A DNA stretch of 32,000 nucleotides from the NCBI GenBank assembly GCA_963716945.1, contig OY970322.1:1050001-1082000 (forward strand), written 5' to 3'. The DNA comes from Candidatus Saccharimonadota bacterium (GTDB lineage: Bacteria; Patescibacteriota; Saccharimonadia; Saccharimonadales; UBA4665). The notes under the pieces are model-generated. The model searched no databases. It was given only the letters and a program-made list of their open reading frames with translations, and had not been told where the DNA came from. Positions 4,379-29,352 of this stretch are shown piece after piece (the first letter of the stretch is position 1; the number at the start of each line of letters is the position of its first letter). Made by a program: the position numbers and the translations under genes.

Positions 4379-4936
4379 TTATGCGGGTTTTCGCAGCGCG
4401 ATCCGGGCGACGGCCAGGCCCGTCCGGGCAACGCCTTGGTCGGCGACGCCCTGGTGCCACATTTCCCGGCCGCGGATAAAAGCAGTGTCGCCGGTTTCCA
4501 AGACATAGTGTCCGATGTTGATCACCCGGAAAGAAGACCGGCCTTCCAAGTTGGCGATAGCCGTGACATCCCCAAGCATCGGGCAATCCCTATGTACCCG
4601 GCCCCTGCCGCCGGCCGTCATCCTAAGCAGCTGGGCATTTATCCCCCAGCCGTTTCCCGGTTCCAGGGTAGTGCCCAGCGCGGCCGCGCCATCGCTGAGT
4701 TTCGCGAAAAGCCTGTCGAAGGCAGTCTCCCGGCCGCTCGTAAGCATGCTCTTGAGCGTGGTTATCCGCTCGCCCGCACCGCCGGCGTGGTCCCTGAACG
4801 GCCGGGCGCTGACTTCCGCCAGCACGGCTTGGGCTTCGGCGGCATCGAATAAGCCTTGTACGGCTACGTGGCCTTCGCCGTCAAATTGTTGCCGCGCGTC
4901 TTCGGCCAGGCTTGGGTAAAGATCCAGCCGCGTCAT
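4379..4936 (-). CDS. hypothetical protein; weak HxD...H pattern (VHRD ... WHQG) hints at a cupin/2OG-oxygenase-like fold
   Basis: 185-aa ORF with an ATG start. It is the first gene after the attenuator-like leader and lies 49 nt upstream of metG on the same strand. The family assignment is not secure. Confidence 0.65.
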   Translation of the reverse strand: MTRLDLYPSLAEDARQQFDGEGHVAVQGLFDAAEAQAVLAEVSARPFRDHAGGAGERITTLKSMLTSGRETAFDRLFAKLSDGAAALGTTLEPGNGWGINAQLLRMTAGGRGRVHRDCPMLGDVTAIANLEGRSSFRVINIGHYVLETGDTAFIRGREMWHQGVADQGVARTGLAVARIALRKPA

Positions 4937-5034: not shown

Positions 5035-5106
5035 CTAAGAACTCGGCCTAGGGCTAAGCATGGGCATAGGCATCATGCTGGAAGCGGCTGCCGACTTAAT
5101 AAACAT
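5035..5106 (-). CDS. candidate leader peptide MFIKSAAASSMMPMPMLSPRPSS (4 Met codons within 6 codons)
   Basis: A 23-codon ORF (ATG 5106-5104, TAG 5037-5035) begins 6 nt after a -10 hexamer. Codons 17-20 (5054-5044) are perfectly complementary to the terminator core at 5009-4999. Confidence 0.4.
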   Translation of the reverse strand: MFIKSAAASSMMPMPMLSPRPSS

Positions 5107-10009: not shown

Positions 10010-10040
10010 AAGGCCGGCGCGAAATATGCGGTCCGGCCTT
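10010..10040 (-). terminator. possible dapA terminator hairpin overlapping its stop codon
   Basis: aaggccgg (10010-10017) pairs with ccggcctt (10033-10040), an 8-bp stem with a 15-nt loop. On the minus strand it is followed by TTGCC, so the U-tract is only short. Confidence 0.35.
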
Positions 10041-11028
10041 AAGCCGTCGCGGCATCACGGTCCATGGCGGCGGCCAGGTTTGCCAGGATCTCGGGCGCCC
10101 TGGCGCGCAGGTAGCGCATTTCAGCCGGCGAAGCTAGCATCGGCGGCAGGCAGTCGCCGACAACTTGTGAGCCCAGCAGGTGTGACATCATGACCTTGGC
10201 AGGGATGGGGTTCGGCGTATCGTGTTCCACGCCGGCTTCATCCGTATGCGTAGATTCAAATCGGGCCGAAGGCTCAAGCGCCGCCTGGATTTCCTCGGCC
10301 CTGGCCTCGTCGCCCGCGAAATGGGCTCCCAGCATTTGGCCGATCTCCCGCCCGGCCCAATGGCTGGCCACCGAAACCGCGCCGACCGCCCCGGCCCGGG
10401 CGAAGTCCAGGTTTAAGCCGTCATCACCGCTGAAGATAGCCAGATCGCCGCCGAACCGGTCATGAAGCGCGGCGGCCATATCAATATTGCCGGTAGCGTC
10501 CTTGACGGCCGCGACCACGCCATCCTCGACCAGCTGGCTGACAGTGTCCAGCTCGACCAGCCGGCCGGTGCGGCCCGGAATGTTGTAGAGCATGACCGGT
10601 CTCTCGGTAGCCGCTCCAACCTCGCGGTAGTAGTGGTCAATACCGAACTGCGACGGCCGGTTGTAATAGGGCGAAACGACCAGGAAGCCGTCGACCGACC
10701 CCCGTTCGTCCGCGGCCCTCGTAAGGGCCACGGCCTCTTCGGTACTGTTGGAACCGGTGCCCGCTATCAGCAGTACCTCTTCACCGACCGCCTCGCGCAC
10801 AACGTCAAACAAATCCAGCTGTTCGTCAGCCAACAGCGTCGGACTCTCGCCGGTCGTGCCGGCCAGCACCAGGCCGTCCGAGCCGTGGCCGACCAGCCAG
10901 GCGGCCAGCTCCTGCGCGCCGTCGCGGTTTAGTCTTCCATCGCCGCCGAACGGTGTTACCATTGCCGTTATGACTCTCTCCTGATCGGCGCCTGGTAACG
11001 GGCCGAAACCTGTTCTTAACTCTGACAT
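10039..11028 (-). CDS. dapA: 4-hydroxy-tetrahydrodipicolinate synthase (DapA family)
   Basis: Motifs seen: TAMVTPF, AGTTGES, SPYYNRP, YNIPGRTG, active-site Lys context AVKDATG. GAAGGAG ribosome-binding site. It is somewhat longer than typical DapA (329 aa). Confidence 0.88.
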   Translation of the reverse strand: MSELRTGFGPLPGADQERVITAMVTPFGGDGRLNRDGAQELAAWLVGHGSDGLVLAGTTGESPTLLADEQLDLFDVVREAVGEEVLLIAGTGSNSTEEAVALTRAADERGSVDGFLVVSPYYNRPSQFGIDHYYREVGAATERPVMLYNIPGRTGRLVELDTVSQLVEDGVVAAVKDATGNIDMAAALHDRFGGDLAIFSGDDGLNLDFARAGAVGAVSVASHWAGREIGQMLGAHFAGDEARAEEIQAALEPSARFESTHTDEAGVEHDTPNPIPAKVMMSHLLGSQVVGDCLPPMLASPAEMRYLRARAPEILANLAAAMDRDAATA

Positions 11029-11054
11029 AATTTTTCTCCTTCTTCGTAAGTATT

Positions 11055-11081
11055 AAAAAGCCCCGTGCCTTAGCGCGGGGC
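11055..11081 (-). terminator. intrinsic terminator in the dapA leader (attenuator)
   Basis: The minus strand reads GCCCCG-CGCTAAGGCA-CGGGGC followed by TTTTT. It ends 26 nt upstream of the dapA ATG, immediately before the ribosome-binding site. Confidence 0.6.
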
Positions 11082-11104
11082 CGAATCATGACGAATCAAG
11101 GGCG

Positions 11105-11164
11105 CTAAGGCAAAAGCTTCGGGCCCTTCTTCTTAGAGTCAAACACAACACCTAAAACGAACAT
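11105..11164 (-). CDS. candidate leader peptide MFVLGVVFDSKKKGPKLLP (AAG AAG AAG run)
   Basis: A 19-codon ORF (ATG 11164-11162, TAG 11107-11105) begins 7 nt after a -10 hexamer. Its last codons and stop lie inside the 11-nt arm (11112-11102), which is complementary to the terminator loop (11076-11066). Confidence 0.4.
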   Translation of the reverse strand: MFVLGVVFDSKKKGPKLLP

Positions 11165-11171
11165 AGCCCCA

Positions 11172-11200
11172 ATCCTATCATGGACACCTCTGATTAGCAA
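11172..11200 (-). promoter_or_regulatory. promoter TTGCTA-17-TAGGAT upstream of the Lys leader ORF
   Basis: Minus-strand hexamers at 11200-11195 and 11177-11172. It lies directly downstream of direct-repeat copy A. Confidence 0.4.
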
Positions 11201-11208
11201 CCCCAGTC

Positions 11209-11238
11209 AACAAAAAAGACCTCCGGTTTAGCCGAAAG
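11209..11238. repeat. 30-bp direct repeat, copy A (partial copy of the tmRNA terminator)
   Basis: aacaaaaaagacctccggtttagccgaaag is identical to 11934-11963. Confidence 0.95.
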
Positions 11239-11342
11239 ACCATTAAAAACCGATTAACACCTTAAGGTGCTACTGCTTGCATCCGTTAGGGGTTTGGTAG
11301 ATTATTGACTCATTAACTCAGTGCCGGATGTGTGAGGTTTGC

Positions 11343-11825
11343 ATGGCTTCTAATGATAGGATTGAAATTCTCAAAATTGCAATTAGGGAAATGCGTAGCA
11401 CGTTTAATCACGTGAGCAATATATATGATCAGTTAAGAATTAAAGCACTGGGTGTTTTAGCAGGTGAAGTAGCTCTTATAAGTTTTATGTTTTCTGGCAA
11501 CGGAGTTTCAATCCCCGGTGAGACATATGGAAAAATATTCTTCTTCACCGGAGTAGTATTCTTGGGAGCAGCCTTTGGCTTACTGCTTTGGACCCTTTCA
11601 CCATTGGCATGGAAAATACCCTATGACCAATTCTCGTCAGAAAATCTTAAGAAATACAAAACGGAAGAAGAGTTTTTAGAGTACTTGAACGACGACCATG
11701 TAGCTGCAACACGACACTGCACAAAATACGTTTCCTTAAGGGCAAAAAGGTTTAGCTGGACTTTATATTTGTTATCAGCCGGTGCTATAATACTAATGGT
11801 CATTAAATTTGGAGGCCAGTCATGA
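11343..11825 (+). CDS. small 3-TM membrane protein, function unknown (islet cargo)
   Basis: The track ORF starts at 11328. The ATG at 11343 is preferred because a GAGG lies 5 nt upstream. The protein has an N-terminal amphipathic helix, two adjacent TM helices, a charged segment of about 50 aa (KKYKTEEEFLEYLNDDH) and a C-terminal TM helix. Codon usage is AT-rich and unlike the neighbouring genes. Confidence 0.65.
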   Translation: MASNDRIEILKIAIREMRSTFNHVSNIYDQLRIKALGVLAGEVALISFMFSGNGVSIPGETYGKIFFFTGVVFLGAAFGLLLWTLSPLAWKIPYDQFSSENLKKYKTEEEFLEYLNDDHVAATRHCTKYVSLRAKRFSWTLYLLSAGAIILMVIKFGGQS

Positions 11826-11860
11826 GAACAACCGATTTTACTCAAGGAGCCTAGCCTTCG

Positions 11861-11880
11861 AGCCCCGAAAGGGGCTTTTT
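11861..11880 (+). terminator. intrinsic terminator of the islet ORF
   Basis: agcccc-gaaa-ggggct followed by a T-run (ttttt att). Confidence 0.6.
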
Positions 11881-11933: not shown

Positions 11934-11963
11934 AACAAAAAAGACCTCCGGTTTAGCCGAAAG
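11934..11963. repeat. 30-bp direct repeat, copy B (within the functional tmRNA terminator)
   Basis: Identical to 11209-11238. It starts 8 nt downstream of the tmRNA CCA end. Confidence 0.95.
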
Positions 11964-11970: not shown

Positions 11971-12369
11971 TGGAGGAGCTGGCGGGTACTGCCCCCGCGT
12001 CCGCCGGTTTATTTAGTTAGTCGTCTACAGGCTTAGTTCGTTTTAGTGTCTTAGGCAACGGGTATCAAAACGAGCAAACAATCCGTTGCCGCAGCCCAAA
12101 GTCTTAGCGCGCTGCCAGGACAGTTCAGCGCGAGCGTCCAGAAAATATGGCGTGCCTTCGCACTATCTGGCGTCGTGTTCGGCACGGTCCGAGGTTTTAG
12201 ACTCGAACTGTTGCGAAGTTCAGCTGTAGCTTAGGAACCGTGAAGTAGCTAGCTAGAGTCTTGAATCCGCGAGCAATTGGGTTTGCAATTACTGGTTTTG
12301 CCTATACGCTGACAAGCGGCCTGCTGATCTAACCGATAAAGTCCAACGTCGAGCTTAAAATTCAGCCCC
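11971..12369 (-). ncRNA. ssrA: tmRNA (transfer-messenger RNA)
   Basis: The 5' end GGGGCTGAATTTTAAGCTCGACG pairs with the 3' end CAGCTCC-T-CCA, giving a 7-bp acceptor stem with the G3:U AlaRS identity pair. The 3' part GGACGCGGG-GGCAGTA-CCCGCCAGCTCCTCCA is nearly collinear with E. coli ssrA GGACGCGGGTTCAACTCCCGCCAGCTCCACCA. A TAA (12199-12197) sits in the loop of the hairpin GTTCGAG/CTCGGAC. A TATAAT lies about 30 nt upstream of the mature 5' end (12411-12406). Confidence 0.85.
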
Positions 12370-28322: not shown

Positions 28323-28425
28323 TCTGCCCCTTATTATCCTAGACAAGATTGGTATGTCAAGCTATAAGCGCTAGGACTTTGCTTACTTGTTCGGGCCGGG
28401 GAATTTATCTTATACTGGCCTTAAG

Positions 28426-29352
28426 ATGCTGCCAGACTTCCCCGATTTCGCGCCGTTGGCCCTGGAAGACAAAGACGAGTATAACCGGTTGGTCCAAGAT
28501 TACCTGCCGTTTTCGAATATTTCGTTCGCGTCGTTGCATATCTGGTGGAACCTCGAAGGCAAGCTGGCGATGTCGTCGCTCAACGGCAACTTGGTCATTT
28601 ACTACCATATCTCCTACGACCCCAAGAATACCGGCTACAGCCTGATTGGCCGCCACGATCCCGACAGTTCCATCGACGCCTTATTCGACTACCTGCGCGG
28701 CAAGCAGGAACCGGTCAGGCTGGTCCACGTGCCCGATTTCGTCATCGAGAAAATCGAACATAAGGATAGGTACGTCATCGAAGAGGAGCCGGACTATAAT
28801 GAATACATCCTCGATAGCCGGGCGTTGGCCAGCCTGGAGGGCAGCAACCACAGCCGTACCCGGCGCAAGGTCAAACGCTTCCTGCGGGAAGTCGAGGATA
28901 GCCGGCTGGAAATTAAAGCGTTGGATTTGTCATCCGAAGACGCCAAGCAACGGTTGTTCGAAGCTATAACCGCGTGGGAGGAGTCCCAGCCATCGCGTAA
29001 CGACCCCGGCCACACCGAACACCAGGCGCTGCGCAAAACCTTGGCCCACGCCGAAGCCCTGGACATCCGGCATCTCGGCCTTTATATAGACGGCAAACTG
29101 TCGGCGGTTATCCTCTACCACAGTTCGCCGGACAAGCAGTACTACATCTTAAACCACCTCAAAGTCGACTACAGCATCCCTTATATCTTCGATTACATGA
29201 CCCACCATATAGCCGACCGGGCCGTGCGCGACAACGTTAAATTCCTCAACATGGAAATGGACCTGGGCATTGAGAACCTGCGGCAGCACAAACTGGGCTT
29301 GAGGCCGGTAGAGTTCTTCCGGCAATACAGCGTGCGGCCGACCGGCGGCTAG
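28426..29352 (+). CDS. DUF2156 protein (homologue of the C-terminal domain of aminoacyl-phosphatidylglycerol synthase MprF; GNAT-like)
   Basis: Family-like motifs: SNISFASLHIWW, EPDYNEYILDSRALASLEGSNHSRTRRKVKRF, LNMEMDLGIENLRQHKLGLRPV. The track ORF starts at 28387. The ATG at 28426 is preferred because TTGTTC-18-TATACT ends 9 nt upstream. Confidence 0.8.
   Translation: MLPDFPDFAPLALEDKDEYNRLVQDYLPFSNISFASLHIWWNLEGKLAMSSLNGNLVIYYHISYDPKNTGYSLIGRHDPDSSIDALFDYLRGKQEPVRLVHVPDFVIEKIEHKDRYVIEEEPDYNEYILDSRALASLEGSNHSRTRRKVKRFLREVEDSRLEIKALDLSSEDAKQRLFEAITAWEESQPSRNDPGHTEHQALRKTLAHAEALDIRHLGLYIDGKLSAVILYHSSPDKQYYILNHLKVDYSIPYIFDYMTHHIADRAVRDNVKFLNMEMDLGIENLRQHKLGLRPVEFFRQYSVRPTGG

Follow-up and report, generated by a model that had tools for sequence, protein, structure and literature searches.

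In textbooks, the genes of lysine synthesis are controlled by the L-box riboswitch or by protein regulators, and an attenuator on dapA that reads codons would therefore be unusual. Here we analysed a candidate leader of this kind upstream of dapA, which encodes 4-hydroxy-tetrahydrodipicolinate synthase, in a 32,000-nucleotide stretch of DNA from a Candidatus Saccharimonadota bacterium (assembly GCA_963716945.1, contig OY970322.1, positions 1,050,001 to 1,082,000 of the forward strand). This whole stretch is called the window, and all positions below are counted from its first letter. A sequence-only reading of the window had proposed that a short open reading frame (ORF) with a run of Lys codons controls dapA by leader-peptide attenuation. 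We consider it likely that the dapA leader is a transcription attenuator in which the ribosome on the leader ORF senses charged tRNA-Lys and thereby controls read-through into dapA.

The L-box and the dapA leader would both place a lysine-responsive decision between terminator and antiterminator 5ʹ of genes for lysine and diaminopimelate (DAP). However, the L-box binds free lysine through an aptamer of about 180 nucleotides (nt) and has no ORF, whereas the dapA leader is about 110 nt long and contains one. Closer in design are the trpL, his, leu, thr and phe attenuators, which share with the dapA leader a short ORF with the regulatory codons in region 1, a stop codon at which a terminating ribosome would mask region 2, three helices (1:2, 2:3 and 3:4) that exclude one another, and an intrinsic terminator directly 5ʹ of a biosynthetic gene. 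The dapA leader differs from them in its lysine codons, in being apparently leaderless and having no Shine-Dalgarno (SD) motif, and in standing as one module before many unrelated operons, in a lineage outside the Proteobacteria and Actinobacteria. The only earlier Lys-codon leader known to us is that of the lysine cluster of Thermus thermophilus, in which a short ORF with Lys codons in tandem and alternative RNA structures reportedly control the biosynthetic genes according to lysine; this cluster serves the alpha-aminoadipate pathway instead of the DAP pathway, and the phylum and the sequence are different from those of the dapA leader.

Leaderless sensory mini-ORFs have been described elsewhere. 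In Sinorhizobium meliloti, trpL/rnTrpL is a transcription attenuator with a leaderless AUG mini-ORF at the 5ʹ end of the transcript (PMC10117765). It differs from the dapA leader in its Trp codons, its phylum and its unrelated sequence, and a trans-acting role of the small RNA or the peptide is known for S. meliloti. In mycobacteria, leaderless polycysteine small ORFs before several operons of related metabolism make up a 'Cys ribulon' (bioRxiv 10.1101/834739). These ORFs resemble the dapA leader, which is probably leaderless too, would likewise sense one amino acid and would form part of a ribosome-directed regulon, but the dapA leader has Lys instead of Cys codons and its predicted output is an intrinsic terminator 5ʹ of the ribosome-binding site (RBS). 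Leader peptides are found mainly in Proteobacteria, Actinobacteria and some Firmicutes (PMC2965389), and a survey of Actinobacteria reported no lysine regulation by leader peptides at the RNA level (PMC1262725). In the literature we found no published Lys leader on dapA or in Saccharibacteria, and a Lys-codon attenuator is apparently undescribed for dapA or in the Saccharimonadales.

Elements of the leader upstream of dapA

All elements of the leader lie on the minus strand (Table 1), and every coordinate and sequence of the sequence-only reading, comprising the promoter, the ORF, the AAG codons, the complementary 11-mers and the terminator, was reproduced. The downstream gene is indeed dapA, with a match to Pfam DHDPS (5.5e-71) and a score of 233 bits against the NCBIfam equivalog TIGR00674, above its cutoff of 206. 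The leader ORF contains three consecutive AAG codons and a fourth AAG at 11119-11117, and its TAG stop codon (11107-11105) falls within the 5ʹ arm of the antiterminator. The terminator ends 26 nt before the dapA ATG, and the RBS of dapA, which is located 3ʹ of the terminator, is thus outside the switch. A simple terminator scan, with loops limited to 3-8 nt, does not list this terminator.

The 11 nt TGCCTTAGCGC (11112-11102), which include the stop codon, are the exact reverse complement of GCGCTAAGGCA (11076-11066), inside the terminator. This complementarity had been recognised from the window, but it was thought to act by stiffening the terminator loop alone. The antiterminator is a 19-bp helix that takes up not only the terminator loop but also the adjoining 3ʹ arm and some of the U-tract. 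The mutual exclusion of terminator and antiterminator had also been seen correctly, and the picture was incomplete in that a third helix, the anti-antiterminator hairpin 1:2, had been missed. In helix 1:2, the Lys codons and the next codon are paired with the bases directly after the stop codon. The three predicted helices 1:2, 2:3 and 3:4 are mutually exclusive, which is the logic of trp-type attenuators.

No L-box (RF00168), T-box, His, Leu, Thr, Trp or Phe leader or other Rfam family was found at the leader at the gathering threshold, nor over 10900-11450 with relaxed filters (E<=10), apart from weak matches (E = 0.7-8) to Betaproteobacteria toxic sRNA, anti-hemB and Spot 42, which match the terminator hairpin only and were rejected. 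The leader is therefore not explained by an L-box or another riboswitch, in agreement with the original proposal.

Table 1. Positions of the leader elements, dapA and the second, Met-codon leader in the window
Feature	Position	Strand	Remarks
-35-like hexamer TTGCTA	11200-11195	minus	Read from sequence; 17-nt spacer to -10 box
Extended -10 box TG-A-TAGGAT	11180-11172	minus	Hexamer TAGGAT at 11177-11172, ending 7 nt from ATG
Leader ORF MFVLGVVFDSKKKGPKLLP, 19 codons + TAG	11164-11105	minus	ATG at 11164
Putative regulatory Lys codons AAG AAG AAG (AAGAAGAAG), region 1	11134-11126	minus	Read from sequence
Helix 1:2, anti-antiterminator hairpin	11127-11099	minus	AGGGCC (11127-11122) with G.GCCCU (11105-11099); stop-codon region in loop
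Antiterminator 5ʹ arm GAAGCUUUUGCCUUAGCGC, region 2	11120-11102	minus	Holds fourth Lys codon and TAG; minimum-free-energy fold, RNAalifold consensus
Intrinsic terminator GCCCCG-CGCTAAGGCA-CGGGGC-TTTTT, regions 3:4	11081-11055	minus	10-nt loop; U-tract
Antiterminator 3ʹ arm GCGCUAAGGCA-C-GGGGCUUU, region 3	11076-11057	minus	Terminator loop, 3ʹ stem arm, first U's
dapA RBS AAGGAG	11041-11036	minus	7 nt before ATG; read from sequence
dapA (4-hydroxy-tetrahydrodipicolinate synthase), 329-aa ORF	10039-11028	minus	Predicted regulated gene; ATG at 11028
Met leader promoter TTGACA + TAGTAT	5138-5133 (TTGACA)	minus	ATG at 5106, 6 nt after TAGTAT
Met leader ORF MFIKSAAASSMMPMPMLSPRPSS + stop	5106-5035	minus	
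Met-leader terminator CCGGCC-UAG-GGCCGG + U-tract	5010-4989	minus	

Conservation of the Lys mini-ORF among relatives

A one-genome-per-species scan with DapA yielded two close relatives, L001 (80% identity) and L002 (72%, labelled Candidatus Saccharimonadales), and the leader was present in both; the remaining matches were Acidimicrobiales or other Actinobacteria at 39-49% identity. A protein search recovered a DapA clade at 54-100% identity, and the DNA around twelve of its members was examined. Every one of these twelve with at least 67% identity carries the leader (L023, L026-L030, L056-L059), and two loci at about 65% (L024 and L025) have a short promoter region only, without the leader. 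The Lys mini-ORF proposed from the window is thus conserved in its relatives: among dapA upstream regions chosen by similarity only (67-100% DapA identity), it was found in 12 of 12, with two adjacent Lys codons (KK) in 11 and KRK in one (L058). P0002, the closest relative at 87%, lies outside this upstream set.

To these we added metagenome contigs, which were scanned with a pattern that fixed the antiterminator core only and left the codons 5ʹ of the core free. The scan gave 25 loci, of which 23 were real and about half lay ahead of dapA; L048 and L050 were chance matches to the pattern, with 64-72% GC and no mini-ORF, and were excluded. The N-terminus of the 18 distinct peptides from these loci is unconstrained, and 17 of them have KK 2-3 codons before a K-L-x-P-stop block, the other being L053 with SKRLK. 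As the metagenome set was chosen by its fixed core, independent evidence comes only from the pattern-free positions and the protein-derived set, and related leader sequences are non-independent observations.

In total, 30 distinct leaders with ORFs of 17-20 codons were obtained. An adjacent pair of Lys codons is present in 28 of them, 2-3 codons 5ʹ of region 2, although the search pattern did not require KK, and synonymous AAA/AAG variants occur in L035 and L031. The consecutive Lys codons before dapA noted in the window therefore hold for the family as two adjacent Lys codons, and not as KKK. In trpL, too, a pair of regulatory codons suffices. The first 9-11 residues of the peptide vary, and the length and the C-terminal half are conserved, with ends such as ...DSKKKGPKLLP, ...GLKKKVRKLTP, ...NVKKRGKLLP, ...DSKKKSTKLRP and ...SSKKQNVKLRP, and further ...NKKESSKLRP, ...SLKKPDKLLS, ...VVKKSSKL and ...GDKRKTLS.

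This conserved C-terminal half, together with the Pro-stop end of most members, speaks for a sensor based on the nascent peptide, in which a small molecule would cause the C-terminal KK..KL[LR]P-stop to stall the ribosome at its stop codon or close to it, as in the TnaC and erm leaders. Free lysine could be the ligand, or else an antibiotic that targets the ribosome and acts on a basic +x+ motif. A Pro-stop context is known to slow termination. However, Pro-stop is not invariant in the unbiased set, in which L056 and L058 end with Ser-stop and L057 with Leu-stop two codons earlier, and TnaC-type arrest was set aside on account of these variants. Many members have KKQ, KKS, KKE or KKH and hence no +x+ motif; macrolide-type arrest was set aside because the motif is absent from most members. 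In addition, the K-L-x-P-stop codons double as an arm of the antiterminator, which explains their conservation without a role for the peptide, and the genes behind the leader are not resistance genes. We regard peptide arrest as very unlikely, and return to a ribosome that reads Lys codons.

Concerning the promoter, of 25 leaders that were scored, 19 have the end of the -10 hexamer 6-8 nt before the leader ATG, and in 14 of the 25 this distance is exactly 7 nt; TTGCnA is kept 17 nt 5ʹ of the -10 box in the closest relatives. No SD-like motif was found 5ʹ of the leader ATG in 25 of 26 leaders. From the spacing of the -10 box and the lack of an SD motif, we infer that the ORF can be translated in this leaderless promoter geometry; transcription probably starts at or beside the A of the ATG, and the ORF would be translated from a leaderless mRNA.

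By contig labels and synteny, the organisms that bear the leader appear to be Saccharimonadales, and shared genes at 57-96% identity link several of the leader contigs to the lineage of the window. A search with a covariance model of the leader built here (R1) found no further copy within the 32 kb of the window, nor a leader 5ʹ of the actinobacterial dapA genes (L003-L022).

Covariation in the terminator, the antiterminator and helix 1:2

When the segment 11170-11029 was folded alone, the minimum-free-energy structure was the long antiterminator hairpin, with z = -1.9 against shuffled sequences. As this z-score is modest for a single window, the case against chance rests on conservation. On the alignment of leaders (A1), 84% of cells are paired in the terminator, and three pairs have changed on both sides (e.g., GC to CG and CG to UA). 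The antiterminator is paired in 91.6% of cells, compared with at most 51% when the partners are slid, and it is independently predicted by RNAalifold from the alignment. Double changes were observed at two pairs of the antiterminator, GC23/UA3 and GC8/UA7/GU4, which are its only pattern-free positions; the window has the rarer U:A form at the first of them. These compensatory changes in a competing antiterminator, together with the conserved mini-ORF and terminator, lend support from related sequences to the leader-peptide attenuation first suggested for the window.

The same observations bear on the simplest alternative, namely that a chance ORF stands next to an ordinary terminator of the upstream genes (tmRNA or an inserted ORF) and that neither has a regulatory role. 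The low single-sequence z-score would suit this explanation, as would the tmRNA gene and the small insert that lie upstream. Against it, the tmRNA has its own terminator, in two copies, and the element stays with the downstream gene across many unrelated upstream contexts. With 30 distinct conserved versions that covary, this explanation is effectively refuted, and we assign it next to no probability.

Helix 1:2 was examined in the nascent RNA, folded from the ATG to just before region 3, and it forms in the window and in 24 of 25 leaders. Its two strands fall into the covariation classes AAG-GGC:GCCCUU, AAG-AGC:GCUCUU, AAG-CGC:GCGCUU and AAG-CAG:CUGCUU. The mean duplex energy was -10.1 kcal/mol with a leader's own partner and -8.6 kcal/mol with partners from other leaders, and none of 5000 permutations reached the own-partner mean, in a test that is inflated by the shared ancestry of the leaders. 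As the codon beside KK varies with compensation and KK itself does not, the Lys codons are kept by more than base pairing.

This point bears on a second alternative, in which attenuation is coupled to translation without being specific for lysine. General translational capacity would then be what the mini-ORF and the helices report, for instance the availability of ribosomes or global starvation for amino acids, and KK would be incidental or would serve only as a strand of helix 1:2. The pairing of the AAG codons with the segment after the stop, the heterogeneity of the genes behind the leader (described below) and the missing adjacent Lys codons in two members are all in line with such a sensor. 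On the other side, KK is fixed in 28 of 30 leaders while the neighbouring codon of helix 1:2 changes with compensation, the gene in the window, dapA, encodes the committed step of lysine/DAP synthesis, and a putative Met-codon attenuator in the same window argues that the choice of codon carries meaning. Taken together, a general translation sensor seems unlikely to us, and sensing of charged tRNA-Lys is preferred.

A trans-acting factor or a metabolite might instead read the 10-nt core of the antiterminator and its complement, with the ORF being secondary. In favour of such a protein- or ligand-binding RNA switch, the core is conserved beyond the needs of pairing across leaders whose flanks have fully diverged. 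However, no match was found among 4227 Rfam families, the element, at about 110 nt, is short and lacks a conserved unpaired pocket, and the length of the ORF, the geometry of its start and the position of its stop are all conserved. Much of the invariance of the core is explained by the double constraint of coding and pairing on its 5ʹ copy and by ascertainment through the search pattern. We give this switch hardly any weight beside an attenuator read by the ribosome.

Proposed mechanism of Lys-tRNA sensing

The analysis shows the elements of the leader in the sequence, together with their conservation, their covariation and the energetic bistability of the folds; the start site, the stalling of the ribosome, the termination and the lysine response are steps that we infer as follows. 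Transcription would start at or beside the leader ATG, and 70S ribosomes would load on the leaderless mini-mRNA. When Lys-tRNA is plentiful, the ribosome would reach the stop codon inside region 2 and hide the 5ʹ arm of the antiterminator; alternatively, it would already be gone and hairpin 1:2 would form. In either Lys-replete state, the terminator 3:4 would form and transcription would end 26 nt before dapA. When Lys-tRNA is scarce, the ribosome would stall on the adjacent AAG codons and cover the 5ʹ strand of helix 1:2, which would leave region 2 free. Free region 2 would then base-pair with the emerging loop, 3ʹ arm and U-tract of the terminator, so that no terminator forms and dapA is transcribed.

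The position of the ribosome was simulated by blocking the bases covered by it and refolding the remaining RNA. With the simulated ribosome at the stop codon, the terminator formed in all 26 leaders, and when the second Lys codon was placed in its A site, 22 of 26 formed the antiterminator. In this second position, L029 and L038 still form the terminator, and L043 and L049 retain the core of the antiterminator with a weakened outer helix. The simulation is uninformative for L053, because this leader has no KK. The leaders are energetically bistable: the global folds with terminator and with antiterminator differ by a mean of 1.7 kcal/mol (range -5.9 to +8.4), and such near-equal energies are what a switch set by the position of the ribosome would need.

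Several observations weigh against specific sensing of Lys-tRNA. There are only 2-3 Lys codons in the leaders, the Lys codons are not adjacent in L058 (KRK) and L053 (SKRLK), and AAG is the commoner Lys codon in the window (238 AAG vs 188 AAA) and thus neither rare nor slow. Because the AAG codons are at the same time part of helix 1:2, structure could account for some of their conservation. The core of the antiterminator, GCCGUAGCGC / GCGCUACGGC (10 nt), is near-invariant beyond the needs of pairing, and in the metagenome set it is also imposed by the search pattern. In the free RNA of the window, the antiterminator is the minimum-energy fold by 3.9 kcal/mol, and termination there would depend on kinetics or on the ribosome. 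Finally, no other gene of the DAP pathway was found in the 32-kb window, and an established link to lysine is missing for some of the genes behind the leader in relatives, namely the murD operon, the genes for a HAD hydrolase and an M23-like protein, and two genes for proteins of about 100 aa.

Other operons behind the leader in relatives

The leader was correctly placed before dapA by the sequence-only reading, but it is not confined to this gene, as the module also precedes other genes in relatives. On related metagenome contigs, it is found ahead of a gene for an M20 deacylase of the ArgE/DapE family. In L036, L041 and L033, it precedes a gene whose product, about 325 aa long, is GNAT-like at its C-terminus and weakly matches (8.7e-7) the putative beta-lysine N-acetyltransferase AblB; the next gene encodes an M23-like protein. 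In L053, the M23-like gene stands directly behind the leader, alone. Elsewhere the leader precedes a gene for an uncharacterised protein of 101 aa followed by murD (TIGR01087, 325 bits), a gene for a GGACT/AIG2-like protein, a gene for a HAD hydrolase, and a gene for another uncharacterised protein of about 100 aa.

Among these, dapA, the ArgE/DapE-family deacylase, the AblB-like GNAT and the GGACT protein would fit regulation by lysine. As the module lies ahead of several operons in relatives, it probably defines a lysine-responsive, ribosome-directed regulon. More tentatively, and with a chance that we put slightly short of even, the Saccharimonadales may have a lysine 'ribulon', in which one modular leaderless Lys-codon attenuator has been copied before at least six kinds of operon: dapA; the ArgE/DapE-like deacylase; the AblB-like GNAT with the M23-like protein; the 101-aa protein with murD; GGACT; and HAD.

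The Saccharimonadales are generally regarded as small-genome, host-dependent bacteria, and how they sense nutrients has, to our knowledge, hardly been described. If the dapA leader works as proposed, their cells would monitor the charging of lysyl-tRNA directly, and the genes behind the leader, including several of unassigned function, would be a map of the response to lysine shortage. If the 'ribulon' exists, its attenuator would be the first cis-regulator for the sensing of amino acids to be described in this reduced-genome group of the candidate phyla radiation, and the uncharacterised genes would be marked as a pathway for the acquisition of lysine/DAP or for cell-wall salvage. The covariance model R1 could be used to chart the regulon across genomes.

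The M23-like protein has 227 aa and contains HxxxD and HxH motifs; among NCBIfam entries, it matches best the middle part of PRK06148, a multidomain 'hypothetical protein' of 1015 aa (E = 1.7e-19). Separately, an ORF at 28387-29352 on the plus strand of the window encodes LPG_synthase_C and Acetyltransf_6 (FemAB-like) domains. Homologues with 25-30% identity occur in L049 and L053, 1-2 kb from the leader and on its upstream flank. Enzymes of the LPG_synthase_C/FemAB-like kind use aminoacyl-tRNA, e.g., Lys-tRNA, as donor.

A second, putative attenuator with Met codons

A putative Met-codon attenuator of similar design is located in the same window at 5138-4989 on the minus strand (Table 1). Within it, GCCCTAGGCCG (5054-5044) and CGGCCTAGGGC (5009-4999) are exact complements, the latter being contained in the Met-leader terminator. 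This attenuator is 5ʹ of a 185-aa ORF (4379-4936) that has no match in Pfam, PHROG or PADLOC. Together with the Lys-codon leader, it suggests that the lineage employs this design for more than a single amino acid.

Surroundings of dapA

The GC content of dapA is 65%, compared with about 58% for the window, and the nearest relatives of dapA outside its own clade are from Acidimicrobiales/Actinobacteria (39-53% identity). Both features would fit an old transfer from Actinobacteria.

At the gathering threshold, the sole Rfam matches in the window were a tmRNA (11971-12369, minus strand) and a tRNA-Glu. Some short stretches of the leader are similar or complementary to the tmRNA gene, on inconsistent strands; they were judged to be chance, and the leader as a fragment of tmRNA was rejected. 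A perfect direct repeat of 30 nt, at 11209-11238 and 11934-11963 (725 nt apart), consists of the tmRNA terminator hairpin and its U-tract, and the two copies flank an insert of low GC (about 40%) between the tmRNA gene and the dapA leader. The sole ORF in the 725-bp insert (11328-11825, plus strand) has its own terminator at 11860-11877 and encodes a predicted membrane protein of 165 aa. This protein has no match in Pfam or PHROG and a weak match in PADLOC to PycTM, a Pycsar effector transmembrane protein (E = 6.2e-5); no cyclase gene was found near this ORF.

In L029 and L057, the tmRNA terminator adjoins the leader promoter directly, and L038 has a different insertion at the same spot. Since the insert is absent from the former two and replaced in the latter, the site just 3ʹ of the tmRNA terminator looks like a hot spot of insertion. 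Toxin-antitoxin genes were found between the conserved neighbours and the dapA leader, BrnT/CopG in L056 (665-1232) and HicA in L057 (627-860), a further sign that the stretch 5ʹ of the leader may be a landing place for small mobile cassettes.

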